DNA of 46,136 nt from a virus: IMG/VR virus record IMGVR_UViG_3300029435_000010, positions 1 to 46,136 of that record. One strand, given 5' to 3'. Positions 1 to 13,345 of the stretch are shown piece after piece; position 1 is the first letter of the stretch, and every line of letters begins with the position of its first letter. The position numbers and the translations under genes were made by a program. The notes below the pieces were generated by a model. That model was not told where the DNA came from and ran no database searches. It saw only the letters and a list, made by a program, of their open reading frames with translations.

Positions 1-123
1 TCGACGGCCATGCCGTCGCAGACGGTACTTAAGGGAATCCTCGGCGAGATCCGAAACGTCGAAGGTGTGACGCGAGCAAAGATCTACGACAACGACACGA
101 GCGAGCCTGACAAGAACGGGATC
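1..123. repeat. Terminal overlap copy 1 (identical to 46014..46136)
   Basis: Base-by-base comparison by eye shows 123/123 identity. The overlap lies inside the baseplate-J coding frame. Confidence 0.95.
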
Positions 124-600
124 CCCGGTCATACGATCTCAGCAGTCGTCGAAGGCGGAGATGCGGCAAAGATTGCCGAGGTTATCCGCCGTCGCAAGTC
201 GACCGGCACAGGGACGTATGGCACGACCGAGATCGTCGTAGTCGATCCTCAGAGTATGCCGATCACGATTCGATTCTTCAGACCATTCATCGCTCACGTC
301 TACGTGCGTGTCACGGTGCGCCCGCTCACGGGCTTCTCGTCAACCTACGTCGAAGAGATCAAGTCCGAAATCGTCTCGCACATCAACGATCTCGGCATTG
401 GGTCGACCGTCTACCTGTCGAAGCTGTACGTCCCGGCGAACCTCGCCGCGAACGACCACGACAACACCTACGACATCGACACGATCGAGATCGGTACGGA
501 TAAGGGCGCTCTCGCCGCGAAGAACATCGTGACGGCCTTCAACGCCGTTCCGTTCAGCCAGGCGAGCTACATCGAGGTCGTGACCAATGACGACGATTAA
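1..600 (+). CDS. Baseplate J-like protein, C-terminal part (continuation of 45423..46136 across the circular junction)
   Basis: The frame is continuous with the open frame from ATG 45423. The gene sits between the gp25/W-like and gpI-like genes. Confidence 0.8.
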   Translation, partial: STAMPSQTVLKGILGEIRNVEGVTRAKIYDNDTSEPDKNGIPGHTISAVVEGGDAAKIAEVIRRRKSTGTGTYGTTEIVVVDPQSMPITIRFFRPFIAHVYVRVTVRPLTGFSSTYVEEIKSEIVSHINDLGIGSTVYLSKLYVPANLAANDHDNTYDIDTIEIGTDKGALAAKNIVTAFNAVPFSQASYIEVVTNDDD

Positions 601-1267
601 TGACTATCTCGAGCGCGTGCCATCGCAACACCGCGATAGACCACGCTTCAGGGAGACGCTAACCGCTTTTCTGAGCCCGATGGTTCGACTGCAGGAGCTC
701 CTTGATGAGACACCACGAAACTATGACGTCGACTTTTCCGTCGGCAAGCAGCTCGATGTCGTGGGCGAGTGGGTAGGCGTGAGCAGATATATCTCAGCGC
801 CGCTCTCTGGCATCTACTTCGAGTGGGATGGGACGCGGTCGACCGGGTGGAACGCTGGGCAGTGGAAGGGACAGTATGACCCGTCCACGGGGCTTGTCGC
901 GCTCGATGACGATACGTACAGATCGCTCATTCGGCTCTATATCGACGCAAATCGGTGGGACGGAACGACTGATGGCGCTTACGATGCGTGGGAATCTATC
1001 TTCGATAGATCCGCAATCGTGATCGAGGACCATCAGGACATGAGCTTCACGATCGGCATCGCCGGGCGGCTCAATTCGAGCGCCCAAAAAGCAATCTTCA
1101 CGACGGGTATGAGTCCCTTCAAGCCCGTGGGCATTCAAATCAAGATCTACTTCATTAGCTCAGACGGAACTTCGCCGCTTTTCGCTTGGGGCGTTCAAAC
1201 AAGCGCCCTAGACGGCTGGGGGAGAGCCGCTTGGGCAGAGAAGTACGACATGACCTTAGACCGCTGA
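587..1267 (+). CDS. Baseplate/tail protein (P2 gpI / Mu gp48-like position)
   Basis: 226-aa ORF overlapping the baseplate-J stop. Assigned by synteny, directly after baseplate J and before the fibre genes. Confidence 0.55.
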   Translation: MTTINDYLERVPSQHRDRPRFRETLTAFLSPMVRLQELLDETPRNYDVDFSVGKQLDVVGEWVGVSRYISAPLSGIYFEWDGTRSTGWNAGQWKGQYDPSTGLVALDDDTYRSLIRLYIDANRWDGTTDGAYDAWESIFDRSAIVIEDHQDMSFTIGIAGRLNSSAQKAIFTTGMSPFKPVGIQIKIYFISSDGTSPLFAWGVQTSALDGWGRAAWAEKYDMTLDR

Positions 1268-1285
1268 AATTCAGCGGTCTTTTTT
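1258..1285 (+). terminator. Rho-independent terminator-like hairpin
   Basis: The arm AGACCGCTG pairs with CAGCGGTCT and is followed by TTTTT. The hairpin overlaps the stop codon of 587..1267. Confidence 0.6.
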
Positions 1286-1297
1286 ATTGGGGGAAAA

Positions 1298-1909
1298 ATG
1301 GCTTCAACAAACTTCGTCCGTTGGGCGTCGTCGCCGGGCGCACAGCTCATGTCGGACGACAAGTACAAAGCTGCCGCCGCGACCGGCCTCGTGCCGGGCA
1401 TCGCTGACCTAGAGCAGGCGAACAAGTCCTGGCTACAGGCGAGCGCGATCGCCGAGGCGTTCGGCCATCTCGTTACGACCAACAAGGCCGCTTACGATGG
1501 CGTCGACTTCCTTGACACGGATACCGCCGAACAACTCGCCGAGAAGGTGTTCGCGGTCTTCGCAAAGCGTCTTCCGGGCGAGATCCCAAACAAAAGCATT
1601 GTCACGTCGAAGCTCGCTGACGAGTCCGTGACGATCGAGAAGCTCGCAAAGAAGCTCGACTTCGGCAGTTCTGAAATCCAGATCCGAGGAATGCCCTTGT
1701 CTCAGCTCAAGCTGGTGACGCTCAAAGACCGCGAGCTCGCTCTTGCGACGGATACCTTCCAGCTCTTCGCCGGCGACGGAAAGAGTCAAGGTGGAATCCT
1801 CATCGGTGGCGATACGGCAGCTCAGATCGTCGAGATCAGAGAGATTCTCGAAGCCCTAACCAACAGCGTTGCCAAGCTTGGCAGCCAGACGCAACCGTTC
1901 ACGGAGTAA
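1298..1909 (+). CDS. Tail fibre protein (proximal part)
   Basis: 203-aa ORF with a GGGGGA RBS, located between the baseplate genes and the tail-collar fibre tip. Confidence 0.5.
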   Translation: MASTNFVRWASSPGAQLMSDDKYKAAAATGLVPGIADLEQANKSWLQASAIAEAFGHLVTTNKAAYDGVDFLDTDTAEQLAEKVFAVFAKRLPGEIPNKSIVTSKLADESVTIEKLAKKLDFGSSEIQIRGMPLSQLKLVTLKDRELALATDTFQLFAGDGKSQGGILIGGDTAAQIVEIREILEALTNSVAKLGSQTQPFTE

Positions 1910-1912
1910 ATC

Positions 1913-2440
1913 ATGGCTATTTCAAATCCTTCTCTCACTCAGATCAAGCAGGCGCTGACGGAGATGCTTCCGAAGCTCAAGCCGTTGTCGGTTCCTACGG
2001 GCATGATCTCGGCTTTTCACACGGTTCCTGAAGGATGGCTTCAGTGCAACGGGGCGGCTGTGAGCCGCACGACGTATGCTGCGCTCTTTGCCGTCATTGG
2101 AACGAAGTACGGCTCGGGTGACGGCTCGACGACGTTCAATCTCCCGAACTTGCACCATAAGTTCATCGAGGGCACGAATACGCAGAGCGAGGTCGGGCAG
2201 TCTGTGTCGGCTGGGTTACCGAACATCACGGGCACACTCAACCCTGTGTGTCAGGAGGGAAAAGCGACCGCGCCGAGCGGCGCATTCAGTCGCACAACGG
2301 GCGGCGGCATGACTGGCTACGAATTCGCGAGAATGAAAACAAACTTTGTCTTCGACGCCTCCGACTCCTCGTCAACCTACGGCTCAGCATCAACCGTACA
2401 GCCTTCCGCACTGCGGTCGCTCCTGTGCATCAAGATTTGA
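1913..2440 (+). CDS. Tail-collar-domain fibre tip protein; constant N-terminus (1913..2218) fused to the currently expressed cassette A (2219..2440)
   Basis: Tail-collar type motifs are present: GWLQCNGAAVSRTTYAALFAVIGTKYG and FNLPNL. The C-terminus is YGSASTVQPSALRSLLCIKI. Crossover core a lies in frame at codon 103. Confidence 0.85.
   Translation: MAISNPSLTQIKQALTEMLPKLKPLSVPTGMISAFHTVPEGWLQCNGAAVSRTTYAALFAVIGTKYGSGDGSTTFNLPNLHHKFIEGTNTQSEVGQSVSAGLPNITGTLNPVCQEGKATAPSGAFSRTTGGGMTGYEFARMKTNFVFDASDSSSTYGSASTVQPSALRSLLCIKI
2219..2232 (+). repeat. Crossover core a (CCGAACATCACGGG), inside the expressed gene
   Basis: Encodes PNITG in the frame of 1913..2440. Confidence 0.85.
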
Positions 2441-2672
2441 TGCACAGCATCGTGCGAATAGTGGAGGGCTGAACCGTTGAAGAGTTGCCGTACAGGTTGC
2501 TTGAGCGGGAGGCGCTGAAGAGGACGCGGGGTCCCTCGGAAGCCCATTCGGCCGCGTTGTTGAACTGGCCCTTCTTAGCAGAACTTCTGTAGAAAGGCCC
2601 TTCTAAGATATCTCCATGCGCACTATCGAATTCCCCCGCCTTCTGAAGCGTGAAAGAACCGCTGATGTTCGG
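2430..2672 (-). other. Silent fibre C-terminal cassette B (80 aa, no start codon of its own at the core)
   Basis: Translation: PNISGSFTLQKAGEFDSAHGDILEGPFYRSSAKKGQFNNAAEWASEGPRVLFSASRSSNLYGNSSTVQPSTIRTMLCIKS-stop. Confidence 0.8.
2659..2672 (-). repeat. Crossover core b (CCGAACATCAGCGG on the minus strand)
   Basis: Encodes PNISG at the head of cassette B. It is separated by 1 nt from core c, and the two cores together create the 17-bp palindrome ATGTTCGGACCGAACAT (2665..2681). Confidence 0.8.
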
Positions 2673-2673
2673 A

Positions 2674-2687
2674 CCGAACATAACGGG
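2674..2687 (+). repeat. Crossover core c (CCGAACATAACGGG)
   Basis: Encodes PNITG at the head of cassette C. Confidence 0.8.
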
Positions 2688-2877
2688 TACAGTCACTGCG
2701 TCATGGGTAAGAGGCACTGGAGCCTTCAAAGATGTCGAAAATGGTAATTGCCCCGACGGAGACCTCAATGGACCCGCCGAAATAGACTTTTCGGCATCTC
2801 GCTCAAGCAACTTGTATGGCTCGTCTTCAACAGTGCAGCCCGCTTCAATCCGGTCGCTCTTGTGCATCAAGATTTAA
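2674..2877 (+). other. Silent fibre C-terminal cassette C (67 aa)
   Basis: Translation: PNITGTVTASWVRGTGAFKDVENGNCPDGDLNGPAEIDFSASRSSNLYGSSSTVQPASIRSLLCIKI-stop. Confidence 0.8.
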
Positions 2878-3088
2878 TGCAGAAAAGCGTGCGAACGGAT
2901 GAGGGCTGGACAGTCGTACTAGATCCGTAAGTGGAGGATGACCCGGAAGCCCGGAACAATCCAGTCTGCCCGGCAGAGCCATTTCCGTCTGAATAGCCAG
3001 AAAGCTTTACAGATCCGATAGAAAATGCGCCTGAATAATACTTTTCATATTCGTTGTCATTGTTTGGGAATTCACCTGTGATGTTCGG
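2867..3088 (-). other. Silent fibre C-terminal cassette D (73 aa; absent from the ORF track because it has no ATG)
   Basis: Hand translation: PNITGEFPNNDNEYEKYYSGAFSIGSVKLSGYSDGNGSAGQTGLFRASGSSSTYGSSTTVQPSSVRTLFCIKS-stop. Confidence 0.8.
3075..3088 (-). repeat. Crossover core d (CCGAACATCACAGG on the minus strand)
   Basis: Encodes PNITG at the head of cassette D. It lies 5 nt from core e. Confidence 0.8.
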
Positions 3089-3093
3089 ACCGT

Positions 3094-3107
3094 CCGAACA
3101 TCAGTGG
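3094..3107 (+). repeat. Crossover core e (CCGAACATCAGTGG)
   Basis: Encodes PNISG at the head of cassette E. Confidence 0.8.
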
Positions 3108-3306
3108 ACGACTCGGCGCATACGACTGTGCCGGTTCCAGTTTTACAGGAGCGTTTCGATATGCAGGCAATGAAGGCGGCCCCTCCACTGCGTGGCGAAG
3201 CGTTGCGTATTCGGATTTTGACGCCTCGCGTTCATCTTCAAAATACGGCTCTTCGTCAACCGTCCAACCAGAGTCCATCCGCCTGATCCCTTGTATCAAA
3301 TCTTGA
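3094..3306 (+). other. Silent fibre C-terminal cassette E (70 aa; no ATG)
   Basis: Hand translation: PNISGRLGAYDCAGSSFTGAFRYAGNEGGPSTAWRSVAYSDFDASRSSSKYGSSSTVQPESIRLIPCIKS-stop. Confidence 0.8.
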
Positions 3307-3514
3307 TGCAAGGGATGAGCCTCAGTGCCGAAGGCTGCACTGTGGAGCTTTTGCCGTAGACCGAGGAAGAGCGAGAGGCCATGAATGACGATTGACCGGA
3401 GCAACTCTCGGAGCCGATTGTGGTTCCGGGGTACAACTTCAAGACATTAAACGCGCCGCCAGTCCAACCGCCGCTACCGTAGTCAAGGCCCGTCACAGTG
3501 CCCGTGATGTTCGG
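3296..3514 (-). other. Silent fibre C-terminal cassette F (72 aa)
   Basis: Translation: PNITGTVTGLDYGSGGWTGGAFNVLKLYPGTTIGSESCSGQSSFMASRSSSVYGKSSTVQPSALRLIPCIKI-stop. Confidence 0.8.
3501..3514 (-). repeat. Crossover core f (CCGAACATCACGGG on the minus strand)
   Basis: Identical to core a. Heads cassette F and lies 5 nt from core g. Confidence 0.85.
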
Positions 3515-3519
3515 ACCTA

Positions 3520-3533
3520 CCGAACATCACAGG
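3520..3533 (+). repeat. Crossover core g (CCGAACATCACAGG)
   Basis: Heads cassette G. Confidence 0.8.
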
Positions 3534-3747
3534 GTATCTTTGTAAGTCAGACTTTAGCAACGACACAAGCTATACAGGCGTTTTTTCACAGACTGAGCGT
3601 GGCAGTGCCTGGGGCGGGGGTACCTCTGGATATGAGAACACTTGGGATAGGCCATATTTTTCCGCTAGAGCATCTAACAGCGCCTATGGTTCGTCATCTG
3701 TCGTTCAACCAGCCTCGATTCGCATGACGCTGTGCATCAAGCTTTGA
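3520..3747 (+). other. Silent fibre C-terminal cassette G (75 aa; no ATG)
   Basis: Hand translation: PNITGYLCKSDFSNDTSYTGVFSQTERGSAWGGGTSGYENTWDRPYFSARASNSAYGSSSVVQPASIRMTLCIKL-stop. Confidence 0.8.
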
Positions 3748-3958
3748 TGCACAAGAGCAGTCGCGTCGAACTCGGCTGAACCACAGAAGACGATCCGTAC
3801 ACAGACGAAGAACGTGAAGAGTTCATCGTTACGCGGCCTCCGTCATGAGCGCCGCCTTGATTAGAATTCAAGCCGATGCGTGCTTCCCCAGTAAATGCTC
3901 CAGTGCAGTTCAGCCCTGAGGTATTCCCGTGCTCAGTAAATGTACCCGTGATGTTCGG
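3737..3958 (-). other. Silent fibre C-terminal cassette H (73 aa)
   Basis: Translation: PNITGTFTEHGNTSGLNCTGAFTGEARIGLNSNQGGAHDGGRVTMNSSRSSSVYGSSSVVQPSSTRLLLCIKA-stop. Confidence 0.8.
3945..3958 (-). repeat. Crossover core h (CCGAACATCACGGG on the minus strand), distal boundary of the shufflon
   Basis: Identical to core a. Heads cassette H and is the last site before the recombinase gene. Confidence 0.85.
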
Positions 3959-4050
3959 GACTCGGATTTGCATGTCATAGAGCGCTCTCTATGTCGTGCC
4001 GGGCACATGAGCGGGCTTCATCTGCAACTCGGCGAAACCCGCGATAGTAG

Positions 4051-5193
4051 CTACTTCCAGGCGATCATGCCGGCACTTTCAGCACAAGCGCGGACGTGCT
4101 CACTCCAACGATCTATGACTGAGCGTCTGGCGTCGAAAAAGTCTGAGCGCTGATAGGCTCGACTCACCTGCGTTCCGATGTCGTGGCTTAGGCACATCTC
4201 GGCGACGTCGAAAGGGACGGCCTCGTCTGCAAGCCACGATCGAGCGATCGAGCGCAGACCGTGCGCGACGAGGTGTCCTCTGAGCGACGTGCTGTGCAGA
4301 TGTTTCGCTAAGGTCTGAGCGCTGATGTGCCTTCCAGTCACGCGGGCTGCGAAGACGAAGGCGCAGCGAGGATGCGGAGAAAGCGCCGCTTCGCGCTCGA
4401 GGAGCTCCCGCATGAAGCCAGTCAGTGGCAAGCGAAAGGGCTTGCGCTTTTTCATGTGCTCGGCGGGGATCTCGATCACGTCGTCGTGGATCCATGACTT
4501 CTCGAGCTTGGCGTTCTCGCCCGGACGGAGCATCGAGCAGAGCGAGAAGAGAAAAAGTATTTGCATCCGCTCGGGCGCGTCCGCCATGACACGCATCACC
4601 TCGGGCAGATCTTTCCACCCGACGGCTGGCATCGGCGTCACGGTGGGCGGGGCGAAGACTCTCGAGACTCTGGCGAGCGGATTGTGCTCGATGTAGCCGG
4701 CGCAGACGGCCAAATCAAGCACTTCTCGCAGGCGCATGAGCACGCGCTTGAGCGTCGCACGCTTCCCTGCCTGCTCGAGCGGCATGACGGCCCTGATGAC
4801 AAGGGGTGCAGTGATCTCGTCGAGCTGACGCCCGCCCAACGGTTTCACGATGTAGCGCTCGAGTCTGCGGCGCTCATCTTGGTAGCTCACGATCTGCGGC
4901 TTCTTGAGCCTGCACCAAAGACGAAAAGCGTCACGCAGGCAGTACCCGCGCGGCGGTTCGAGCCCGACCTCTTTTCGGAGGCGTCGGGCTTTTTGTCGTG
5001 CTTGCGCGAGATTCATGTCTGGGTACTCGCCGAGCTTTTTGTCTGCGACACGGCCTGAGCACGACGTGCGCAGATACCAGATCTTTCGCCCTGACGGCAT
5101 GACTCGCAAAGTCAGTCCGTTGCCGTCGGCGATTGAATACCTTTTTTCACGCGGCTTCAATGCCGCGATTTTTTTAGAGGAGAGAGTAGTCAC
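4051..5193 (-). CDS. Tyrosine site-specific recombinase (P4-integrase-like, arm-type N-terminal domain); candidate shufflon invertase
   Basis: GTG start at 5193 lies 4 nt after GGAGG. N-terminus LKPREKRYSIADGNGLTLRVMPSGRKIWYLR. Catalytic-type motifs LRPGE, HGLRS, LSH and RAYQRSD. The gene abuts the last crossover site. Confidence 0.8.
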   Translation of the reverse strand: MTTLSSKKIAALKPREKRYSIADGNGLTLRVMPSGRKIWYLRTSCSGRVADKKLGEYPDMNLAQARQKARRLRKEVGLEPPRGYCLRDAFRLWCRLKKPQIVSYQDERRRLERYIVKPLGGRQLDEITAPLVIRAVMPLEQAGKRATLKRVLMRLREVLDLAVCAGYIEHNPLARVSRVFAPPTVTPMPAVGWKDLPEVMRVMADAPERMQILFLFSLCSMLRPGENAKLEKSWIHDDVIEIPAEHMKKRKPFRLPLTGFMRELLEREAALSPHPRCAFVFAARVTGRHISAQTLAKHLHSTSLRGHLVAHGLRSIARSWLADEAVPFDVAEMCLSHDIGTQVSRAYQRSDFFDARRSVIDRWSEHVRACAESAGMIAWK

Positions 5194-5781
5194 ATGACCT
5201 CCGATTTCAAGACGGCGTATCGCTTTGATGACGCCGGGTACTTCGAGCACGAGCTTTCCGTCCAAGTGATTGACGGCGAAGCGCTCATGCCGCCGTCCGC
5301 AACCTTGCTGCCTCCCTGGGGCGATGCAAAGCCGGACGACAAGGTTTTCTACCGCTTCGACGGCGAGTCGTGGAAGTCGGAAGCAAAGCCTACGTGCGCA
5401 GCCGATCTTGTCGGTGTGGTGGTTTCTCATCAGTCTCAGACGCCGCGCGACATCGAAATGCGCTCGCTCATCCAGAAGTTCTCTCAGGAAGAGGGTTATC
5501 GCGAAAAGCGCGGCGAGGACCTCTCGTGGTCCCTCGAGAAGATCCCTGAAAAGACTGAGGAAGAAAAACTGACTGAGGCGAAGCAGTCCGTTCGCTCGAA
5601 GCGCGATCGCTTAATCGCCGATACGGACTACCTGCTGACGCCTGACTACCCGATCAGCCCTGACGAGCTTGAGGTCGTCAAGGCATACAGAACTGCGCTG
5701 CGTGACGTACCGCAGCGGGAAGGCTTCCCTTACGACGTTGTCTGGCCTGAGCTTCCTGAAGTGCTTGCAAAGAAGAAGTAA
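5194..5781 (+). CDS. Tail fibre assembly protein (Tfa-type chaperone)
   Basis: C-terminal signature RDRLIADTDYLLTPDYPISPDELEVVKAYRTALRDVPQREGFPYDVVWPELP is typical of Caudovirales tail fibre assembly proteins. Confidence 0.75.
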   Translation: MTSDFKTAYRFDDAGYFEHELSVQVIDGEALMPPSATLLPPWGDAKPDDKVFYRFDGESWKSEAKPTCAADLVGVVVSHQSQTPRDIEMRSLIQKFSQEEGYREKRGEDLSWSLEKIPEKTEEEKLTEAKQSVRSKRDRLIADTDYLLTPDYPISPDELEVVKAYRTALRDVPQREGFPYDVVWPELPEVLAKKK

Positions 5782-5790
5782 GGAGGCGGG

Positions 5791-6147
5791 ATGGCCACTA
5801 CTCTCGACATCCACGTCGATCAGGGCTCGGATGTCCGAGTGCCGATCGCTTTCATCGACGATTTCTCTGAGCTTGATCTGACGGGGTTTAGCGCTCGTAT
5901 GGAGATACGCCCGTCGGCATCAAGCAAAAAGGTGGTTGATCGTCTCACCACGGAGAACTCGCGCATCTCAATCGAGAAGGAGACGCTCACGCTTCTCTGG
6001 CCGCACGAAGTCACTGAAAACCTGCCGGCAGGCAGCTACGTCTATGACCTTGAGCTTGCCTCTGAAGGCGGAGAAGTCACGCGCGCGCTAAGTGGACGAG
6101 TTCAAGTGTGCAAGGAGGTGACGCAATGGCCTACGGCGACTGCGTGA
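5791..6147 (+). CDS. Hypothetical structural protein
   Basis: 118-aa ORF with an AAGGAGG RBS, located in the fibre cluster. Confidence 0.6.
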   Translation: MATTLDIHVDQGSDVRVPIAFIDDFSELDLTGFSARMEIRPSASSKKVVDRLTTENSRISIEKETLTLLWPHEVTENLPAGSYVYDLELASEGGEVTRALSGRVQVCKEVTQWPTATA

Positions 6148-6572
6148 TCCCGCCGATGGGATACCCGGGGTGCTATCCAGCACCCCCGCCCGTCGGTGGG
6201 CGGCGCGTAGTGAGAGTAAGCGTTCCTGGCATTCAAGGCCCGAGGGGCGAGCCGGGATCGCAAGGCTACTCGATCAGAGTCTGTGCTTCGCTCGATGCTT
6301 TCGAGACGACTGCACTTGAAAACCTTAGACCGTCGCTCGGCGCAAAGGCTGGCGATTCGGTCGTCAACTCAAGCGGACAAATCTTCATCATCACGAACAC
6401 TACCGAGTCGACATTCACTGTCGGTGAAGTCGTTGGCTGTCTGGGCGTGCGCATTGATGATGCGGATGTATCCGTTGAGAAAGTCTGGTCCTCTCAAAAG
6501 ATTCAGGAGCGCTTAGGCGAGCCCGTTGACTTTGTGAAGACCTTTGAATCCGAGTTGGACTCGGGAATTTAA
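6126..6572 (+). CDS. Hypothetical fibre-associated protein with a short collagen-like stretch
   Basis: ATG 6126 is preceded by AAGGAGG. Contains GIQGPRGEPGSQG (four G-X-Y triplets plus a closing G). Confidence 0.55.
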   Translation: MAYGDCVIPPMGYPGCYPAPPPVGGRRVVRVSVPGIQGPRGEPGSQGYSIRVCASLDAFETTALENLRPSLGAKAGDSVVNSSGQIFIITNTTESTFTVGEVVGCLGVRIDDADVSVEKVWSSQKIQERLGEPVDFVKTFESELDSGI

Positions 6573-6594
6573 TCGCAACAAGGAGTTTGCAAAA

Positions 6595-7332
6595 ATGGCT
6601 GAACTTAAGGATCTGGAAACTCGCGGCAAAGAGCTTGCCGAGCGCGTTGGCCAGGAGATCAAGAAGGTTCGAGGTGAAATCGCCGCCGGTGGACAGGCCA
6701 CGTCCGCCGATAAGGTGTCCTACAACGGCAAGACTGTCCAGGAAGCTCTCGACGACCTGAACTACATGCCCATTCAGATCACGTCTTTCACGAACACCGT
6801 GAACGTGGTCGAAATGGGCGCAACGGTTGACACGGTCACGCTGAAGTTTGCATTCAACAAGAAGCCGAAATCTCTCACGCTTGATGGCCAGCAGGAAGAC
6901 GTCAACGCAACGACGAAGGAGCTCACTGGCCTCGGTCTCACGGCGAACAAGACCTGGAGCCTCACCGCCAAGGACGATCGCGAAGCTACGTCCACTAAGA
7001 CGACGTCGGTCTCCTTCCTCAACGGTGCTTACTGGGGCATCGGCGCTGTCGAAGCTGACGGCGTTACGGACGAATTCGTCAAGGGTCTTCAGAAGGCCCT
7101 GACCGGCTCCAAGGCTCGAGAATTCACCGTGAACGCAACGGAAGGTCAGTACATCTACTACGCCATCCCGACTCGCTTCGGCACGCCTGCCTTCTTCGTC
7201 GGCGGCTTCGAGGGCGGCTTTGCCAAGCTGAAGACCTTCGACTTCACGAACGCTTCCGGCTACCAGGAAAGCTACGACGTGTATCGCTCTGACAACGTGG
7301 GTCTTGGTTCTACCAAGGTCACGGTCAAGTAA
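6595..7332 (+). CDS. Hypothetical structural protein
   Basis: ATG 6595 (MAELKDLE...) follows an AAGGAG RBS. Located in the fibre cluster. Confidence 0.6.
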   Translation: MAELKDLETRGKELAERVGQEIKKVRGEIAAGGQATSADKVSYNGKTVQEALDDLNYMPIQITSFTNTVNVVEMGATVDTVTLKFAFNKKPKSLTLDGQQEDVNATTKELTGLGLTANKTWSLTAKDDREATSTKTTSVSFLNGAYWGIGAVEADGVTDEFVKGLQKALTGSKAREFTVNATEGQYIYYAIPTRFGTPAFFVGGFEGGFAKLKTFDFTNASGYQESYDVYRSDNVGLGSTKVTVK

Positions 7333-7352
7333 ATCGAAGGAGGCAAAGAAAA

Positions 7353-8381
7353 ATGGCAATCGAACTTATCGGTAAGATCAAGCAAAAGAACAATGGTTCC
7401 TTTGCTCTCGTCGACTCTCAGGACATCGATCATGAGGGTAAGCGACTGAACGTCGTTCTTCAGGAACTCAATGACGTCGGAACGGGTGTAACGGCTCTCA
7501 CTCAGCGCGTTGAAGCCAACGAAGGCAATATCACCGCCCTTCAGGGCGAAGTCGCAAAGAAGGTCGAAATTGACGACGCTCAGGCTTCTGCTACGAAGAC
7601 CTACTCGTCTCAGAAGGTCGACTCCCAGATCACTGCCGCCAAGCAGGCTGTGAAGGACGATCTTCTCGGCGGTGCCGGCGAAGCATACGACACCCTGAAA
7701 GAACTCGCTGACGCTCTCGTCACGAACAAGGACGCGATCACCGCTCTCCAACAGATCGCTCAGGGTCACGTTCAGTTCGACAAAGCTCAGGCTCTGAATG
7801 ACGATCAGAAGAAGCAGGCTCGTGCGAACATCGGCGCTTTGAGTGCCGCAGTTGAAAAGAGCGGCGTTGCTCTTGACACGCTGACTGAAGAAGGCTCTTA
7901 CGTCGTCACGGGTGCTACTGGTCTTCCTGCCGACTTCACGGCTGATCCCGTTTTTGTGACTGTCATGAAGGCCGGCACGGCAACGGTTCAAATGGTCGGT
8001 GGCGTTCAGGGCGCTGAGTACAAGCTCTTTGCTCGTACTGCGGCCGACGGCGCGTATGGCAAGTTTGCTCAGATCGGCGCAAAGACTGATCTGACTGACT
8101 ATGCCAAGAAGAGCGAAGTCACGACTCAGATCAGTGAAGCTGTCAACCCGGTGAAGACGACTGCCGAAGCCGCTCAGGCAAAGGCGACTGAAAACGCTGG
8201 CAAGATCACGACCCTCGAGTCGACCGTCGGTGAGCACACGACGAAGCTTTCTTCGCTTGAAGGTCAGGTGCAGACGAACACCCAGGCGATCCAGAAGAAC
8301 GCCGGCGACATCACGACGATCAACGCAAACATCGGCGCGAAGCAGGACTTCGTCGCCGCCTTTGAAGCCGCTTTGGCCTAA
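7353..8381 (+). CDS. Tail fibre-like protein (coiled-coil rich)
   Basis: 342 aa. Heptad-like repeats and the DTLKELADAL motif are common in phage fibres. Strong RBS. Confidence 0.6.
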   Translation: MAIELIGKIKQKNNGSFALVDSQDIDHEGKRLNVVLQELNDVGTGVTALTQRVEANEGNITALQGEVAKKVEIDDAQASATKTYSSQKVDSQITAAKQAVKDDLLGGAGEAYDTLKELADALVTNKDAITALQQIAQGHVQFDKAQALNDDQKKQARANIGALSAAVEKSGVALDTLTEEGSYVVTGATGLPADFTADPVFVTVMKAGTATVQMVGGVQGAEYKLFARTAADGAYGKFAQIGAKTDLTDYAKKSEVTTQISEAVNPVKTTAEAAQAKATENAGKITTLESTVGEHTTKLSSLEGQVQTNTQAIQKNAGDITTINANIGAKQDFVAAFEAALA

Positions 8382-8391
8382 GAGGTGAACT

Positions 8392-9351
8392 ATGGCAGAC
8401 GCATCTTTTGAAAAAGACAGCGATCTGCTCAACGCTGCGGCCGCCTTCATGGCGGCTGCGGCGCGCCGCACGCCTGGTCCTTTAACTGCTGAGGTCAAGC
8501 TCGCGGTCGAGCGCATCGCAAAAGAAATTAAGGCTATCCGCGCTGAGGTAGGAGGCGATAACTCTTTGCAGGGTCGAGTTGAGGCACTGGAAGAGGCCCT
8601 CGCCGACATCGCCTTTAACGAGAAGCTTTTGGCGAATGGCTTGGCGAAGTCGACGTCTCAGACGCCGCCGTTTTCAGTAACTTTGACGCTCGCAGGGATG
8701 CCTGGTGGTTCAACTGTCACGTGGACAGTTGACGGTAAGTCGGCCACAGGCGCGAGTGTTAGCACCTATATCGGCGCTCAAGTTTCATGGTCTGTGTCGT
8801 GTGCAGGCTATCGCACAAAGACTGGAACAGTCAGCGCGCTCTCGACTCAGACGATCGACGTCACGCACGAGGAGCTGCAAGCTGCGGATATCGTGTTGTC
8901 TGGCTACTTCTATGATCCGCACAAGCAACTTGTGAACTTGGTCGACAACACCAATTTTCAAATTGGCGGTTCAAACATCCAGAACGGGTCTTCGTCGTAC
9001 AACAAGAATTTTGGCGCGTCTTACGGCTACATCAAGCTTACGACGAAGGAGCAGTGCACGCTCAGCGTCACGGGCTACGTCAGCTCTGAAAGCAAATATG
9101 ACTTTGGCGGCGTGTATGTGGGCTCGAAGATTTACAAGCCGACGCAATCTCAAGCGAAAAGCGGGACCACGGACAGCGCCGGATCGTATCTGATCCGCCA
9201 GTCTGGCTCCAACTCCTCTAAGGAGTACACGATGACGCTGAACGCAAACACGACGTACTACCTGAACTTCTTCTATGTGAAGGACGGTTCCAGTAACAGC
9301 AATTCTGACCGATTCTTTGTATCGAAGATTCAGTATCGAGCAGTCGTTTAA
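8392..9351 (+). CDS. Hypothetical fibre/receptor-binding candidate
   Basis: 319 aa with an S/T/N/G-rich, beta-rich C-terminal half. Directly follows the fibre-like gene. Confidence 0.5.
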   Translation: MADASFEKDSDLLNAAAAFMAAAARRTPGPLTAEVKLAVERIAKEIKAIRAEVGGDNSLQGRVEALEEALADIAFNEKLLANGLAKSTSQTPPFSVTLTLAGMPGGSTVTWTVDGKSATGASVSTYIGAQVSWSVSCAGYRTKTGTVSALSTQTIDVTHEELQAADIVLSGYFYDPHKQLVNLVDNTNFQIGGSNIQNGSSSYNKNFGASYGYIKLTTKEQCTLSVTGYVSSESKYDFGGVYVGSKIYKPTQSQAKSGTTDSAGSYLIRQSGSNSSKEYTMTLNANTTYYLNFFYVKDGSSNSNSDRFFVSKIQYRAVV

Positions 9352-9367
9352 GCACGCGGGAGGTTAA

Positions 9368-9682
9368 ATGCCATACAGAGATTTAAGTGACGGGCAGATT
9401 CTGGCCGCCGCAGGTGGTTTTGCGACGATCTGCGGCTGGCTTTCGTACCTGCTGAAGGTACAGGAAGGAAAGGCTTTCACATGGCGAGAGTTTTTGCTTC
9501 ATGGAGCGATCAGTGCTGTATGCGGGCTGATCAGCTACGAGGTGCTTTTTTACGAAGGGTTCCCGCCGCAGCTGTGTGGGGCCCTGAGCGGCATGGCCGG
9601 ATGGGGCGGAACTCGCCTGATCAGATTGCTTGAGATCGTACTCGAGAAGCGCCTCGGCGTGAGTAAGGAGGATTTGAAATGA
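9368..9682 (+). CDS. Holin
   Basis: 104 aa with predicted hydrophobic helices and a charged C-terminus. Immediately upstream of the endolysin and overlapping it. Confidence 0.7.
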   Translation: MPYRDLSDGQILAAAGGFATICGWLSYLLKVQEGKAFTWREFLLHGAISAVCGLISYEVLFYEGFPPQLCGALSGMAGWGGTRLIRLLEIVLEKRLGVSKEDLK

Positions 9683-10131
9683 AAAACTTTTCTGAATATT
9701 CGGTGGATCTAGCCGCCGATTTCATCGAGGCGTGGGAGGGCTGTCGCCTGACTGCGTACAAGTGTCCTGCCGGTATCTGGACGATTGGCGTCGGTCACAC
9801 GAAGGACGTGACGGAGCATGACGAGATCACGTATGAGCAGTCGAGGGAGCTACTTCGAAAGGACATCGAGGAGGTCAAGCGCGGGCTCGCGCCGTTCGTC
9901 AACATTCACGTGACGGAGGGGCAGTTCATTGCGCTGGTGAGCCTCGCTTTCAACGTGGGCGCGTCCTACGTCGTGCACAACTGCCCGAGGCTCATGAGGG
10001 CCCTCAATGCAGGCGACGTCGAGCAGGCCGCGCATCAGTTCCTCGACATCACGAAGGCGGGCGGCAAGGAGCTTCCGGGGCTCGTCCGCCGCCGCAAGTC
10101 CGAAGCGAAGCTTTTCCTTGGGGAGGACTGA
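9679..10131 (+). CDS. Endolysin, GH24 phage lysozyme family
   Basis: Motif IEAWEGCRLTAYKCPAGIWTIGVGHT (catalytic E...D/C...T arrangement of T4/lambda-type lysozymes). Confidence 0.9.
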   Translation: MKNFSEYSVDLAADFIEAWEGCRLTAYKCPAGIWTIGVGHTKDVTEHDEITYEQSRELLRKDIEEVKRGLAPFVNIHVTEGQFIALVSLAFNVGASYVVHNCPRLMRALNAGDVEQAAHQFLDITKAGGKELPGLVRRRKSEAKLFLGED

Positions 10132-10132
10132 G

Positions 10133-10675
10133 ATGGTCTACTTGCGTTGGCTTCTTTCGATGCCTCTGAGCTACTTGATGCTTCTCGTCGGCTTGATCCT
10201 CGCGCCCGTTCTTCCGTTCTTCGTGGACAAGGAAACGCACCGTCTGCCGAAATGGCTCGATTGGTTCGCCACTGACGACAACGACGCAGACGGCGACGAG
10301 GGCCATCGGCAACGATGGCCGGGGACGGATGCCTGGGCGACGTACAAACGTCGAGTCGCGTGGATGTGGCGCAACACATGCTACGGCTTCGACATCAATG
10401 TGCTCGGGGTCGAGGTGCGCTCGAGCGACTCGTGGGAGGTGACTGGCGATGAGAATGCCTCCGACACGAACGGCGTCTCGGGCACGTGCCGCAGGCGTTG
10501 CCGCCGCGACGGGAAACTCATCGCCTTTCAACTCTATTACATCAAGCACTATCGCCTGTTCGGCAGGCCGTGCTGTGTAAGGCTCAACCTCGGCTGGAAA
10601 CTGTGGGGATCCCGCGACAAATGTGCTCAGTACGTCGGCATCTACTTCAACCCTATGAAGGGGTTCGAGTTCTGA
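10133..10675 (+). CDS. Hypothetical membrane protein in the lysis cluster
   Basis: ATG 10133 follows GGGGAGGA. The N-terminal hydrophobic helix is MVYLRWLLSMPLSYLMLLVGLILAPVL. Confidence 0.6.
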   Translation: MVYLRWLLSMPLSYLMLLVGLILAPVLPFFVDKETHRLPKWLDWFATDDNDADGDEGHRQRWPGTDAWATYKRRVAWMWRNTCYGFDINVLGVEVRSSDSWEVTGDENASDTNGVSGTCRRRCRRDGKLIAFQLYYIKHYRLFGRPCCVRLNLGWKLWGSRDKCAQYVGIYFNPMKGFEF

Positions 10676-10687
10676 AGCAAAAAAGGA

Positions 10688-10722
10688 AAAGCCGCTCGGT
10701 TGTGGCGACCGAACGGCTTTTG
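10688..10722 (+). terminator. Terminator-like hairpin
   Basis: AAGCCGCTCGGT pairs with ACCGAACGGCTT (one mismatch) and is followed by TTTT. An A-run upstream suggests bidirectional function. Confidence 0.5.
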
Positions 10723-10747
10723 GGAGACCTTTTGAGACAGAGGTTCT

Positions 10748-10924
10748 ATGGAGAGTATTTTATCAAACTTGATCGTCGCTTTGCGACTCGGAGAATTGAT
10801 GATGGTCGAGAATTTGACGTGGCAGGCGATTGGGACATACGTCGTCTTTTTCGGACTCGGCGGCGTGGCTATTGCCTGGGGGCTTGCCAAAACGGTCAAG
10901 GCTTGGAAGGATGCCTTGAAATGA
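10748..10924 (+). CDS. Small membrane protein (58 aa, below the ORF-track cut-off)
   Basis: Hand translation MESILSNLIVALRLGELMMVENLTWQAIGTYVVFFGLGGVAIAWGLAKTVKAWKDALK. The stop overlaps the Rz start. Confidence 0.45.
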   Translation: MESILSNLIVALRLGELMMVENLTWQAIGTYVVFFGLGGVAIAWGLAKTVKAWKDALK

Positions 10925-11373
10925 GTGTTCAAGTTTTGAAGGGAGTGGCGGTACTTTTAGCGAGTGCCGCCTTTTTTATTGCCGGCTACCAGTATGCCGC
11001 GGCGCTCTATGGCGAGGACATTGCCGCGCTACGTGAGGACTACGCCACGCGTGCGCAGTCTCTTGAGGTTAAGTACAGAGAGAAGGAGAGGGGCTATGCA
11101 CAGAGTCTTGTTGATGCGTGGGAAGCCCGGGACAAGGCGCTTGCTCGCGCCGATGATCTTGGCGCTGATCTTGAGCGGGTGCGCAAGCAAGCAGCCGACG
11201 CTCGCAGTCGATTGTCCGCAACCGGTGCCGGTACCTGCGACGCTGAAAGAGAGCGCCTTGCCAGATGCGCAGACCTTGTCGAGCGAGGCGCAGAGCTGGT
11301 TCGACGAGGTGTCGACCTTTCTGAGCGGACTGCGATAGACAAGGACGCCGTCGTGAAGATCGTCAGTCAGTGA
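10921..11373 (+). CDS. Rz: i-spanin (Rz-like)
   Basis: N-terminal TM helix (AVLLASAAFFIAGY) followed by a charged coiled-coil. Contains the embedded Rz1 frame. Confidence 0.8.
   Translation: MSVQVLKGVAVLLASAAFFIAGYQYAAALYGEDIAALREDYATRAQSLEVKYREKERGYAQSLVDAWEARDKALARADDLGADLERVRKQAADARSRLSATGAGTCDAERERLARCADLVERGAELVRRGVDLSERTAIDKDAVVKIVSQ
11096..11338 (+). CDS. Rz1: o-spanin (Rz1-like lipoprotein) embedded in the +1 frame of Rz
   Basis: Lipobox LILSGC and a proline-rich mature part. GAAGGAG lies upstream of ATG 11096. The gene sits entirely inside 10921..11373. Confidence 0.75.
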   Translation: MHRVLLMRGKPGTRRLLAPMILALILSGCASKQPTLAVDCPQPVPVPATLKESALPDAQTLSSEAQSWFDEVSTFLSGLR

Positions 11374-11504
11374 CGAAGTTGTAGACGAACTCAGCCGAAA
11401 GTTTAGACGAAGGGTGGCGCCTAAAAAAAAGGCTGAAGCGTCTGTAATGGTTCTGCCCCAACGGTTTGAGGATGGCGCCCATAAAAACTTAGTTAGACGA
11501 AAAT

Positions 11505-11541
11505 GCCCCACTTACCTTCGCTGGTAGGTGGGGCGTTTTTT
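11505..11541 (+). terminator. Rho-independent terminator at the lysis/int junction
   Basis: GCCCCACTTACC pairs with GGTAGGTGGGGC and is followed by GTTTTTT. Confidence 0.75.
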
Positions 11542-11557
11542 GTGCCTTCGAAAAACG

Positions 11558-12754
11558 TCACTTCTTCTTCGGCATGATCGTGTCGGCCCACGACTGCATG
11601 ACGGGACGACGTAGTTCACATAGGTCGTCACGCTGATATGTTTGCTCAACGGCGTTGCCGGTTGCGTGCATCAAGCATTTCTCTGCGACGACTCTGTCCA
11701 CACTGTTTCTGGCCGCCCAGTCTCGGAAGGTCGAACGGAATCCGTGCATTGTTACTTTGCCGTCTGTGAGCCTGCTGACCGTGTGATACGGGTTGTCGAT
11801 GCGGATTGGTCTGTGCGCCCAGTAAGGCGATGGAAAGAGCGGTCCCTTTTGGCTCGGGTTAGCGGCAAGCAGCACTTCAATGGCTTGATCGCTCAGAGGG
11901 ACACGGTGCGGGAAAGGCTTGCGGTCCTTTCTGCGAGCAGGCGGGATGTACCAGATGCGCTCTTCGAGATTGATTTCATCCCATAACGCGAGCGTAAATT
12001 CCTTTCGGCGCGTGGCGGTCAAGATGCCGAAGAGTGCGGCAAGACGTGAAGAAGGCTCTCCGACCTCGCCTGCAAGCAATCGACTGGCAATGTTGATCGC
12101 CTCATCAAGCGTAGCGGCAGGGCAATGCCTGGTGGTGTAGATGCGCTGAGGTGATGGCAACCACGCATCCAAATTGCCGCGCCAAGTGGCTGGATTCTCT
12201 TTGGTGTAAAACCCTTCACGCTTTGCATAGGCAAATACGGTCTCCAAGAAACCACGGGCTTTGATGCCTGTCGGAGTCTGATCCTTCCAGAGCGGATTGA
12301 GGATTGAAAGGATGTGAGACGTTTCGACCTCTTTAATCGGCATGTCTCCGATGTGCTGGACGGCGAGGCCGAGGATACACCGACGCCATTCATTGATGCT
12401 GTGCTTGTTCTTGTATTGCTTGACCTCAATGATGATCGGGATGATGCGCTCGGCATATTCCTTGAATGTTGGTTCGTGCTTTGTCTTTCCCGGTGCTTTC
12501 TTTTCTTCTCTGAAAGCCTTCGGGTCGACTCCCTGTGTGAGGAGGGTGTGGCATTTGAGCGCCTCATCCTTCGCCATTTGAATTTTGATGATTGCCGGAT
12601 CCCCTAGCGAGAGATCCTTGCGCTTTCCGTCGAATGTGTATCGGAAGACAAACGATCTGCTGAGTCCGTTTCTTCGGACGACGAGGTACAAATTCGGCGC
12701 GATCTTATATCGTCCATCGCCTACTGTCAGAATGTTTTTGGCCGTTATGTTCAT
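11558..12754 (-). CDS. int: Phage integrase (tyrosine recombinase, P4-like with arm-type N-terminal domain)
   Basis: Start is MNITAKN at 12754. Motifs ATRRKE, HGFRSTFRDW, LMH and QTYQRDD. Adjacent to arm-type repeats and a Xis-like gene. Confidence 0.85.
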   Translation of the reverse strand: MNITAKNILTVGDGRYKIAPNLYLVVRRNGLSRSFVFRYTFDGKRKDLSLGDPAIIKIQMAKDEALKCHTLLTQGVDPKAFREEKKAPGKTKHEPTFKEYAERIIPIIIEVKQYKNKHSINEWRRCILGLAVQHIGDMPIKEVETSHILSILNPLWKDQTPTGIKARGFLETVFAYAKREGFYTKENPATWRGNLDAWLPSPQRIYTTRHCPAATLDEAINIASRLLAGEVGEPSSRLAALFGILTATRRKEFTLALWDEINLEERIWYIPPARRKDRKPFPHRVPLSDQAIEVLLAANPSQKGPLFPSPYWAHRPIRIDNPYHTVSRLTDGKVTMHGFRSTFRDWAARNSVDRVVAEKCLMHATGNAVEQTYQRDDLCELRRPVMQSWADTIMPKKK

Positions 12755-13048
12755 GGTGTGTCCCACAAAATTGAATCCCCGAGGTGCCGAACGGGCCTTT
12801 TGTCCCACAGTTGTCCCACAGGCTGACAGCGTGTAGGCGGTGTGCAGGTGGCGTGACGGTAGCGGGGGTACGGCCATGCTAACACGAAAAACCCCGCTAC
12901 ATAGCGGGTATGTAGCGGGGTAGTGGTTAGCATGTAGCTAGGCTGTAGAGGAGCCGATCACTTAGAAGCGGAAGTCGCTGAGTGTTGTGTCGCAGGGCAT
13001 TTTGTTGTGGTCATTTGTTTTGTCCCACGGATTGTCCCACGCCGAGCA
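12755..13048. promoter_or_regulatory. Candidate attP: five direct TGTCCCAC arm-type repeats flanking a ~60-bp imperfect palindrome
   Basis: TGTCCCAC occurs at 12759, 12801, 12812, 13021 and 13033, all in the same orientation. The palindrome CATGCTAAC...GTTAGCATG spans 12874..12934. Confidence 0.5.
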
Positions 13049-13345
13049 TCATTCAGTAGAAAAGGCGTTCTTTTGAGAGACGCTCATCTTGCTCACGTAG
13101 TTCAGGCGGCGGAGGGCGTCGTCGACAGCCTTTTCACCTTTCAGCATGAACCACTTGCGGATCATGCCGACAGTCCAACGGCCTGCGCCATTGCGTCCGC
13201 CGTAGTCCATCGACGGCGGAATGAATCCAGAGTCGACTGCATTGCGGAGACTGGTCTCGGATTCATAGCCGAGGCTTTCCATGAGGCTCTTCTTGTCGAG
13301 TATAGAGTAGTCCGGCACGGTCGTGTCAAAGATGTCGATCTTCAT
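13049..13345 (-). CDS. Putative excisionase / AlpA-like DNA-binding protein
   Basis: 98 aa positioned next to int and the candidate attP. Loose AlpA-like pattern (LGYESETSLRNAVDSGFIPP...GRWTVGMIRKW). Confidence 0.4.
   Translation of the reverse strand: MKIDIFDTTVPDYSILDKKSLMESLGYESETSLRNAVDSGFIPPSMDYGGRNGAGRWTVGMIRKWFMLKGEKAVDDALRRLNYVSKMSVSQKNAFSTE

Follow-up and report, generated by a model that had tools for sequence, protein, structure and literature searches.

A P4-type tyrosine recombinase with a retained arm-binding domain as the probable invertase of a phage fibre-tip shufflon in Sutterellaceae prophages

What is a second integrase-type gene doing in the tail module of a phage, and what use would such an enzyme have there for an arm-binding domain? 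The question is raised by the gene at 4051-5193 of a 46,136-nucleotide stretch of viral DNA (positions 1 to 46,136 of IMG/VR record IMGVR_UViG_3300029435_000010; this whole stretch is the window referred to below). A first-pass annotation of the letters alone had pointed to two P4-type tyrosine recombinases in this one phage and had proposed that the product of 4051-5193 was recruited as an invertase. We believe that 4051-5193 very probably encodes the site-specific invertase of a phage fibre-tip shufflon, and the proposed recruitment gains support both from its conserved linkage to the recombination sites and from exact inversions bounded by those sites in related phages; catalysis by this particular enzyme we infer from comparative genomics. 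Judged by its sequence relationships, the enzyme derives from P4-type phage integrases and not from Rci or Rin, the tyrosine invertases of plasmid R64 and of Bifidobacterium prophages.

The shufflon and the recombinase beside it

The fibre-tip gene, the short repeats (cores) with the cassettes that they open, and the recombinase are arranged in the window as follows.

1913..2440, plus strand: fibre-tip gene as assembled, 175 amino acids, with a Collar domain in its constant part and tail-fibre PHROG matches
1913..2218, plus strand: constant N-terminal part of the fibre-tip gene, 102 residues, joined at core 1 to cassette c1
2219..2232, plus strand: core 1, CCGAACATCACGGG, the constant/expression site within the fibre gene
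2659..2672, minus strand: core 2, CCGAACATCAGCGG
2674..2687, plus strand: core 3, CCGAACATAACGGG
3075..3088, minus strand: core 4, CCGAACATCACAGG
3094..3107, plus strand: core 5, CCGAACATCAGTGG
3501..3514, minus strand: core 6, CCGAACATCACGGG
3520..3533, plus strand: core 7, CCGAACATCACAGG
3945..3958, minus strand: core 8, CCGAACATCACGGG, the terminal core, closest to the recombinase
2219..2672: invertible segment 1, with convergent cassettes c1 (2219-2440, plus, 73 amino acids) and c2 (2430-2672, minus, 80 amino acids)
2674..3088: invertible segment 2, with c3 (2674-2877, plus, 67 amino acids) and c4 (2867-3088, minus, 73 amino acids)
3094..3514: invertible segment 3, with c5 (3094-3306, plus, 70 amino acids) and c6 (3296-3514, minus, 72 amino acids)
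3520..3958: invertible segment 4, with c7 (3520-3747, plus, 75 amino acids) and c8 (3737-3958, minus, 73 amino acids)
4051..5193, minus strand: shufflon recombinase (putative invertase), 380 amino acids, GTG start, TAG stop
its residues 4-76: arm-binding domain (Arm-DNA-bind_3, PF13356, E=2e-17)
its residues 90-177: core-binding domain (Phage_int_M, PF22022, E=6e-14)
its residues 196-351: catalytic domain (Phage_integrase, PF00589, E=3.6e-12)
5194..5781, plus strand: tail-fibre assembly chaperone gene (Phage_tail_APC, tfa), outside the shufflon and divergent from the recombinase

The eight 14-bp cores (consensus CCGAACATCACGGG) alternate strictly +-+-+-+- between the fibre gene and the recombinase, with 93 bp from core 8 to the recombinase stop codon. 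All eight lie, within two mismatches, inside 2219-3958, a count that none of 100 shuffles reached anywhere in the window. Each core encodes P-N-I-T/S-G in frame and opens a frame of 67-80 codons, and every one of the eight cassette frames ends in ...SSTVQPxxxRxxxCIKx*. That all seven silent cassettes are still open frames is itself evidence that they are in use. The elements that define a shufflon in functional terms, namely alternating repeats, an in-frame swap of a gene's 3' end and an adjacent recombinase, are all found at 1913-5193. Such a shufflon would swap the last ~70 residues of the Collar-domain fibre-tip protein among eight cassettes in four segments, and, because the cores encode P-N-I-T-G in frame, each inversion would fuse the constant 102 residues to a different open cassette.

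The recombinase gene lies, as the first-pass annotation had it, between the last core (3945-3958) and the fibre assembly gene (ATG at 5194), and its description there as an intact, arm-bearing P4-type enzyme with a catalytic core holds on every count that we could bring to it. The reading frame is uninterrupted from the GTG at 5193 to the stop at 4051-4053. No variation is seen at R223, K248, H311, R314, H337 or Y347 among 17 aligned homologues; these residues supply the R-K-H-R-H/W pentad and the tyrosine nucleophile of the tyrosine recombinase superfamily on a Phage_integrase fold, and the chain stops ~30 residues past the catalytic tyrosine. In sequence, the first 76 residues match the arm-type structure solved for a CP4/HPI-like integrase (HPI, high-pathogenicity island; 3JTZ) at E=1.8e-14, with 39% identity to the HPI integrase arm domain. 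In an AlphaFold model of the recombinase (mean pLDDT, the predicted local distance difference test, of 81), the arm domain superposes on 3JTZ with a template-modelling (TM) score of 0.93 and a root-mean-square deviation (rmsd) of 0.9 A over 75 columns, and on 3RMP with a TM score of 0.91 and an rmsd of ~1 A; for the full chain the closest fold is lambda Int, and Tn1549 Int and Cre also match. By Pfam, by sequence and by fold, then, this is the architecture of a P4-like (Arm-DNA-bind_3) integrase, and its best family models are likewise 'integrase' ones (PRK09692, E=6e-51; phrog_1). At the same time, it scores 173 bits against the NCBIfam cut-off of 434 for PRK09692, a CP4-57-type model, and the functional marks of a P4-like integrase (a two-sided attP, the phage attachment site, a chromosomal target and a position at the edge of the element) are missing from a gene that sits inside a tail module. 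There is no transfer RNA (tRNA) gene in the window and no transfer-messenger RNA (tmRNA) gene near 4051-5193.

The GTG start of the recombinase at 5193 and the ATG of the tail-fibre assembly gene at 5194 are neighbouring bases on opposite strands, an arrangement with zero intergenic DNA that recurs in the related locus L010. The promoter of each gene must therefore lie inside the other, and late transcription of the tail operon would run antisense across the entire invertase gene. On the far side of the shufflon, the Collar-domain tip gene is preceded by a DUF2612 gene (587-1267) and by a fibre-like gene (1298-1909) with a match to Mtd_N, the N-terminal domain of the major tropism determinant; in large-scale surveys, tail-fibre genes and neighbouring 'site-specific integrase' and DUF2612 genes are over-represented at predicted programmed inversions (PMC9881135).

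Natural inversions and the company that the recombinase keeps

Evidence that the segments move comes from comparisons between contigs that encode identical recombinase proteins. In one such pair (L012 and L013) 1500 nt of flank on one side and 3000 nt on the other are 100% identical, and the 464 nt between them match at 100% as the reverse complement; other exact core-bounded inversions span 436 nt (L008/L009), 458 nt (L011/L019) and 433 nt (L001/L005, 99.8% identical). Three short-read contigs (L014, L015, L018) end exactly at the first core and three more (L006, L007, L020) within ~55 bp of it, as expected if the population is heterogeneous at that point; L015 also has tail genes joined to lysis genes in reverse orientation, which probably reflects assembly through the inverted repeats. 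Within the window's own lineage (recombinases 80-99% identical), the segment pairs are found again, differently ordered and oriented, and phages with an identical 24-nt constant junction express homologues of the window's silent c3, c4, c5 and c8. In most variants found in nature, a single segment has been flipped in place.

The same variants locate the crossover. When a segment flips, core positions 9, 11 and 12 move with the inner cassette and the outer flanks stay; the exchange therefore falls within core positions 1-8. At any one locus these eight positions do not vary, even at the synonymous third base of the proline codon; between loci they differ (CCG/CCC/CCA/CCT and AAC/AAT/GAC), which is the signature expected of an overlap region needing identity between partners. 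Outside the 14 bp the information content is low on both sides, with the inner flank partly conserved and the outer flank free, and the cores are therefore minimal and asymmetric. In our model, the invertase would recombine pairs of inverted 14-bp cores, with the strands exchanged within the initial 8 bp, CCGAACAT, and the asymmetry of the sites may disfavour deletion between direct cores, by analogy with what has been proposed for the R64 sfx sites.

Several loci depart from the simple alternating plan. In L028 (7456-9058), L107 and L095, several cores in a row point the same way (+++--- or +++++---) and the ~230-bp cassettes are in tandem; direct cores therefore persist there side by side without being deleted. 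The cassette partners within a segment re-assort between relatives (L012:2111-2574 against L011:5198-6130; also L047, L055 and L060), and one cassette of L012 bears the C-terminal tail of another, a pattern that points to homologous exchange, or else to assembly collapse, where the convergent 3' ends encode the conserved STVQP...CIK. In L008 (6087-6163), a degenerate core, CCGAATATGGGCGG, is followed by a ~30-nt remnant of the fibre constant region (...GCTGGGTTA) between the invertase and the first functional core; L009, whose invertase is identical, has neither, and the remnant looks like the footprint of a past rearrangement. An exceptionally large shufflon of this family is found in a Ca. 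Aphodousia gallistercoris metagenome-assembled genome (DVNT01000064; L024:7240-11550), where 22 core-initiated open cassettes extend over ~4.3 kb downstream of a 63%-identical invertase.

The recombinase and the cores keep each other's company across a wide range of divergence. A search of 5.8 billion proteins returned 556 relatives of 4051-5193 at E<=1e-20, mostly unnamed gut-metagenome proteins, one of them annotated from Sutterella wadsworthensis; megablast of window positions 1-12000 found no near-identical phage in GenBank, and the best phage protein match is 34% identical. Some ~100 related loci, mostly in Sutterellaceae prophages and with recombinases 40-99% identical, keep the order recombinase, spacer, shufflon, the spacer from the stop codon to the first core being mostly 73-112 bp (extremes 51 and ~160 bp). 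Among the 12 loci from GTDB species representatives, all of them Sutterellaceae (Sutterella, Duodenibacillus and Ca. Aphodousia), ten have the recombinase with a core chain that begins 51-151 bp past its stop codon; one of the other two contigs is cut, and one is ambiguous. IMG/VR supplied 75 loci, and nearly all of the 71 examined that had enough downstream sequence have 2-15 cores. In the relative contigs that we fetched, the 3' end of the recombinase always faces a Collar-domain fibre gene across a gap that has little annotation and contains cores of this kind, while the gene on its other side varies (tfa, holin or DUF4376). The linkage extends to L039, only 40% identical, where PNISG and PNITG cores and STVQP-type cassettes lie 90 bp past the recombinase stop; relatives at 38-39% identity stand in ordinary integrase settings without cores.

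The phylogeny draws the same boundary. The invertases form a clade with 100% neighbour-joining bootstrap support, apart from the co-resident, P4, CP4-57, Vibrio and Pasteurella phage integrases; the support of 0.53 obtained with Rci included we attribute to Rci as a rogue taxon, since it is 1.0 without Rci. Profiles and tree together, a check that the first-pass annotation had proposed, place 4051-5193 outside Rci and in a clade of its own, and its nearest relatives (30-39% identity) are integrases of the P4, CP4-57 and HPI types. Two proteins, P0126 (L038:1768-2865) and P0127, are 50-53% identical to it over the core-binding and catalytic domains and have an unrelated N-terminus with no Arm-DNA-bind_3 match. 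P0126 lies among T4-like structural genes, next to an RVT_1 reverse transcriptase gene and with no PNITG shufflon. With no shufflon in this one context examined (L038), we do not take the pair as evidence that the arm domain is dispensable for shuffling.

If 4051-5193 inverts, which enzyme integrates? Two further features of the window bear on this.

11558..12754, minus strand: bona fide P4-type phage integrase, not part of the shufflon, with the same three Pfam domains as 4051-5193
12758..13042, plus strand: attP-like region of that integrase, with five direct arm-type repeats TTGTCCCACAG

The repeats, whose presence beside this gene had been predicted correctly, begin at 12758, 12800, 12811, 13020 and 13032, as one single copy and two tandem pairs, and enclose a ~200-bp central region with palindromes at 12859-12921. 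This stretch, upstream of 11558-12754, has the layout of the annotated attP of phage P4 and is the probable attP of that integrase. In related prophages, a recombinase 42-44% identical to 11558-12754 is the last phage gene before host genes. By its surroundings, 11558-12754 is the phage's real integrase, and 4051-5193 is not. The two enzymes had been called paralogous, and the shared architecture that this implies is real, both having the same three Pfam domains; the close kinship is overstated, as they are ~23% identical in a multiple alignment, have a single significant BLASTP segment (C-terminal, 34% over 128 amino acids, E=2e-14) and are placed in separate clades. The LKPxxKxY motif ascribed to both is present in 4051-5193, and its literal form is missing from 11558-12754. 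The label 'Xis-like' for the neighbouring 13049-13345 could not be verified, this gene having no Pfam match up to E=10 and no PHROG match.

Candidate arm sites and the rival explanations

Why, then, has the enzyme kept its arm domain? Clade-wide amino-acid identity is 0.60 in the arm domain and 0.62 in the catalytic domain, and the ratio of nonsynonymous to synonymous substitution rates (dN/dS) is ~0.13, estimated from few unsaturated pairs; the arm domain is under purifying selection and is not decaying. The possibility that the gene is a decaying pseudogene in related phages, raised at the outset as one that would undo the invertase proposal, thus runs against both this ratio and the invariant catalytic residues. 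Possibly damaged invertases lie beside cores in three of the 75 IMG/VR loci: L081 has an early in-frame stop, L102 (6001-7120) a frameshift near residue 327 and L118 (6001-6564) a truncation after residue 188; sequencing error and real decay are both possible.

Two candidate accessory sites emerge at the recombinase end of the shufflon.

3996..4006: candidate accessory site m2, a GTGCC-N-GGCAC palindrome (read as TGTGCCCGGCAC on the strand of the recombinase), separated from core 8 by 49 bp
4072..4086, minus strand: candidate accessory site m1, TGTGCT-GAA-AGTGCC, codons C370 A371 E S A374, within the recombinase 3' end

The first-pass annotation had suggested a search for arm-type repeats at both ends of the shufflon: a plain scan of 3959-4050 gave none, a comparison across loci brought out m2 in that interval, and the fibre end gave none. 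At nearly every locus a TGTGCC-N-R-GC(A/C)C element, often in the form of the palindrome GTGCC-N-GGCAC, lies between the stop codon and the first core, and the general form of m1, at codons C370 and A371, is TGTGCY-NNN-(A/T)GTGCC. In the window m1 begins 79 bp upstream of m2. The spacing of the two is 78-81 bp in 22 of 30 representatives that are less than 90% identical, across unalignable sequence in which the position of the stop codon varies between 30 and 87 nt past m1; between m2 and the core, the distances fall into clusters of 59-60 or 48-49 bp. The cysteine codon of m1 is TGT in 28 of the 30, against 55 of the 183 other cysteine codons of the same genes (Fisher p=3e-11; the lineages are partly dependent). 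Comparison with the arm repeats annotated in the P4 record itself (TTGGGGGCACAT) shows that these and m2 have GGGCACAT in common, and m2 also fits the TGT(G/C)CC pattern of the arm repeats of the phage's own integrase and of the repeats just upstream of two nearest-relative ordinary integrases; a limited literature search for an arm-site consensus of HPI or P4-like integrases gave nothing usable. Because the motif resembles P4-type arm repeats, we treat m1 and m2 as candidate arm-type sites. That they function as such, bound by the arm domain, may be the case, and we would put the chances somewhat short of even.

Other roles for these sequences were considered and set aside. The reading of m2 as an isolated core half-site has behind it TGTGCCCG, which m2 shares with the inner flank of some cores here; loci of the L008 type keep m2 without any such resemblance, and this reading therefore fails as a general one. 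As an intrinsic terminator, GTGCC-N-GGCAC could not fold into a hairpin, its loop being 1 nt; no terminator-like call was obtained, and the folding z-score is only -2.2. The cassette tails (STVQP, CIK) could be arm sites at the DNA level, except that their synonymous positions vary freely, which marks the conservation as protein-level. Recombination by the terminal core only, which would produce prefix reversals, is disfavoured by the in-place flips of single segments.

Overall, we envisage an enzyme that would retain a heterobivalent architecture of arm-binding, core-binding and catalytic domains. Its N-terminal arm domain would bind a one-sided array of TGTGCC-type sites at the recombinase-proximal end (m1, 79 bp, m2, ~50-60 bp, core), and array and enzyme together would form an attP-like nucleoprotein end that aids the loading of the enzyme on the minimal asymmetric cores. 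In its boldest form, this would be a heterobivalent integrase of the lambda/P4 style turned dedicated inverter, with a one-sided attP-like array, partly written in the synonymous positions of its own 3' end, that biases the reaction toward inversion. We offer this form tentatively, as an idea with clearly more chances of being wrong than right. If it is true, the nucleoprotein end would determine the choice of recombining cores and would add a third way of giving a shufflon direction to the two already known: in Rci, a C-terminal domain that acts on asymmetric sites, and in serine invertases, control by an enhancer and Fis.

A number of observations tell against this model or parts of it. The idea of arm sites arose post hoc; m1 overlaps the conserved codons C370 and A371, so that its conservation is partly protein-level; and a clear m2 is missing in about a quarter of the representatives. 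The candidate array is one-sided, with no copy at the fibre end, and a 10-mer scan of 1900-4060 allowing one mismatch found only the cores and the cassette 3' ends to repeat. In-place flips of single segments can proceed without the terminal core and are not predicted by a model in which the arm-bearing terminal core alone recombines. As for the invertase itself, the evidence of inversion comes from between-sample inversions in relatives and from contig breaks at the cores, the window's own relatives being only 74-97% identical in the cassettes, and a recombinase acting in trans might conceivably be responsible for the inversions. Near-identical recombinases accompany one, two or four segments, so deletions or assembly collapses do occur. 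A scan for sigma-70-like promoters around 4051-5193 found none, though such a scan is probably uninformative for this host.

Were the arm domain not to bind m1 and m2 at all, 4051-5193 would still be an invertase, acting on the cores alone like Rci and Rin, and the TGTGCC elements would be an autoregulatory operator, the target of some factor from host or phage, or a transcription signal where the gene ends. We regard this as possible rather than probable. The array's one-sidedness, with the shufflon interior and the fibre end both free of arm-type repeats, and the common in-place flips of internal segments would suit it, as would the palindromic form of m2, typical of dimeric regulators, the hairpins predicted for the m1/m2 region (z=-2.2), the existence of the armless catalytic-core relatives P0126 and P0127, and the fact that Rci and Rin work without an arm domain. 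It is harder to reconcile with an arm domain that is conserved as much as the catalytic domain and whose predicted fold superposes on a P4-like arm-binding domain at 0.9 A, or with a motif that matches the P4-type arm-repeat class. The fixed 79-bp spacing and the DNA-level constraint on codons do not sit easily with a simple operator, and the sole armless relative examined is unlinked to a shufflon.

That the inversions are the work of integrase 11558-12754 or of a host recombinase, with 4051-5193 a passenger or a decaying second integrase, seems to us very improbable. In its favour, 4051-5193 is tied to the cores by comparative genomics, trans-acting global invertases are known in other bacteria (PMC6109161), and there are the possibly damaged copies in three of 75 viral loci (L081, L102, L118). 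However, the co-resident integrases belong to differing lineages (INT_L010 is 21% identical to the window's), while the cores and the recombinase linked to them remain of the same family; the recombinase 3' end always points toward the shufflon at a conserved distance, its catalytic residues are invariant and its dN/dS is low, and the integrase has distinct arm repeats of its own, TTGTCCCACAG. Scarcely credible to us is the reading of 4051-5193 as a conventional integrase, whether serving a second att site or hitch-hiking between the fibre and tfa genes. The full integrase architecture, the best models (PRK09692, phrog_1) and the ordinary integrases found at 38-39% identity would speak for it, but there is no two-sided att-like array, tRNA or tmRNA nearby, the NCBIfam score is 173 against a cut-off of 434, and in ~100 loci the gene occupies a tail-module position, always beside cores, with a neighbour on the other side that varies and a shufflon linkage that is constant. 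The invertase of a fibre-tip shufflon thus remains the reading that we favour for 4051-5193.

Significance and comparison with known systems

What would be new here is an independently recruited, arm-bearing, integrase-type invertase driving a phage fibre shufflon, and with it a large and previously undescribed family. Phage shufflons driven by tyrosine recombinases were already known (Rin, BV01), and the distinctive feature is the retained arm domain. To our knowledge, an arm-binding domain is absent from all of the tyrosine invertases that have been studied well (FimB/E, Rci, Rin, Tsr-type). Possession of this domain counts as the hallmark that turned tyrosine recombinases into integrases of mobile elements (PMC8138268). 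An arm-bearing inverter on in-frame 14-bp cores would make it possible to test what arm binding does where no integration or excision has to be controlled and how deletion between direct cores is avoided, with the geometry of the accessory sites as a starting point. A literature search, limited in extent and no proof of absence, found no paper on this Sutterellaceae family or on any arm-bearing invertase.

The wider interest lies in the biology and in practice. With a tail-fibre shufflon, a temperate phage can hedge its bets across host surface variants, and shufflons of this family, whose loci hold between 2 and at least 22 cassettes, occur commonly among the prophages of Sutterellaceae, which are abundant human-gut bacteria. 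Shufflon loci break short-read assemblies at the cores, and, because the invertase is annotated as an 'integrase', apparent counts of prophage integrases are inflated. The recombinases now used for multiplex inversion in synthetic biology are Rci homologues only (PMC11852207), a toolkit that arm-bearing invertases could widen.

The closest parallel in form is the R64/IncI shufflon (Rci, sfx, pilV), which likewise has four segments, multiple inversion, an in-frame swap of the C-terminus of a surface-recognition protein and a tyrosine recombinase gene adjoining the array, and whose sfx sites share the asymmetry, having one conserved flank and a short crossover block that does not vary (PMC11852207). 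The enzymes differ. R64 Rci (from NC_005014) has the catalytic Pfam domain PF00589 alone, in line with the first-pass annotation and with its published description as free of an arm-binding domain (PMC8138268), whereas 4051-5193 has three domains, and the two share no significant similarity (best BLASTP E=0.15; ~21% identity in a forced alignment). The extra domain of Rci is C-terminal and special to it, that of 4051-5193 N-terminal; what characterises the Rci type, an armless enzyme with a C-terminal extension for cooperative binding to asymmetric sites, is not what we find. The target in R64 is a pilus adhesin and here a phage fibre tip, and the core is unrelated to sfx.

Closer in biology is Rin of Bifidobacterium prophages, described as the first phage-encoded tyrosine invertase, XerD-like and explicitly without an arm-type domain (PMC6109161). 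In Bifidobacterium, and also in Eggerthella lenta prophages, a phage tyrosine invertase lies beside variable C-terminal cassettes of a receptor-binding protein, as here, a separate tyrosine integrase is encoded in the same prophage, and the hosts are human gut bacteria; the combination of one tyrosine integrase and one tyrosine invertase in a phage is thus already published (PMC6109161, PMC8778435). The core of the Rin site, rix, is the 11-bp TTCCCTAACCC, where the core here is CCGAACATCACGGG (Rin being compared by its description, PMC6109161). Rin belongs to siphovirus-like phages of Actinobacteria, in contrast to the P4-type, arm-bearing enzyme of prophages in the Sutterellaceae, which are Betaproteobacteria; the two-domain, XerD-like, armless build and the rix core by which Rin is known from its description are not those of 4051-5193.

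Fibre C-termini are also alternated by inversion in the serine-invertase systems (Mu Gin, P1 Cin, p15B Min), with multiple inversions in the case of Min (PMC6109161), and a fibre shufflon driven by Gin has been described (PMC13418256). Serine invertases are of an unrelated superfamily and chemistry and need an enhancer and Fis, and the tfa-like gene of these systems usually lies within the invertible segment, whereas tfa is constant here and outside it. A BV01-like Phocaeicola phage has an active, recombinase-flanked, multi-cassette shufflon over the fibre 3' end, again in the gut virome, with a different 10-bp motif (TGGGAGAACT), three cassettes and a Bacteroidota host (PMC13596623). With the P4, CP4-57 and HPI integrases, finally, the enzyme of 4051-5193 shares its three-domain architecture and a candidate accessory motif that resembles the family's arm repeats. 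Unlike them it lacks a two-sided attP and a tRNA or tmRNA target and does not lie at a prophage edge, and it stands in a clade of its own, where it would invert DNA at many in-frame cores within a single gene.

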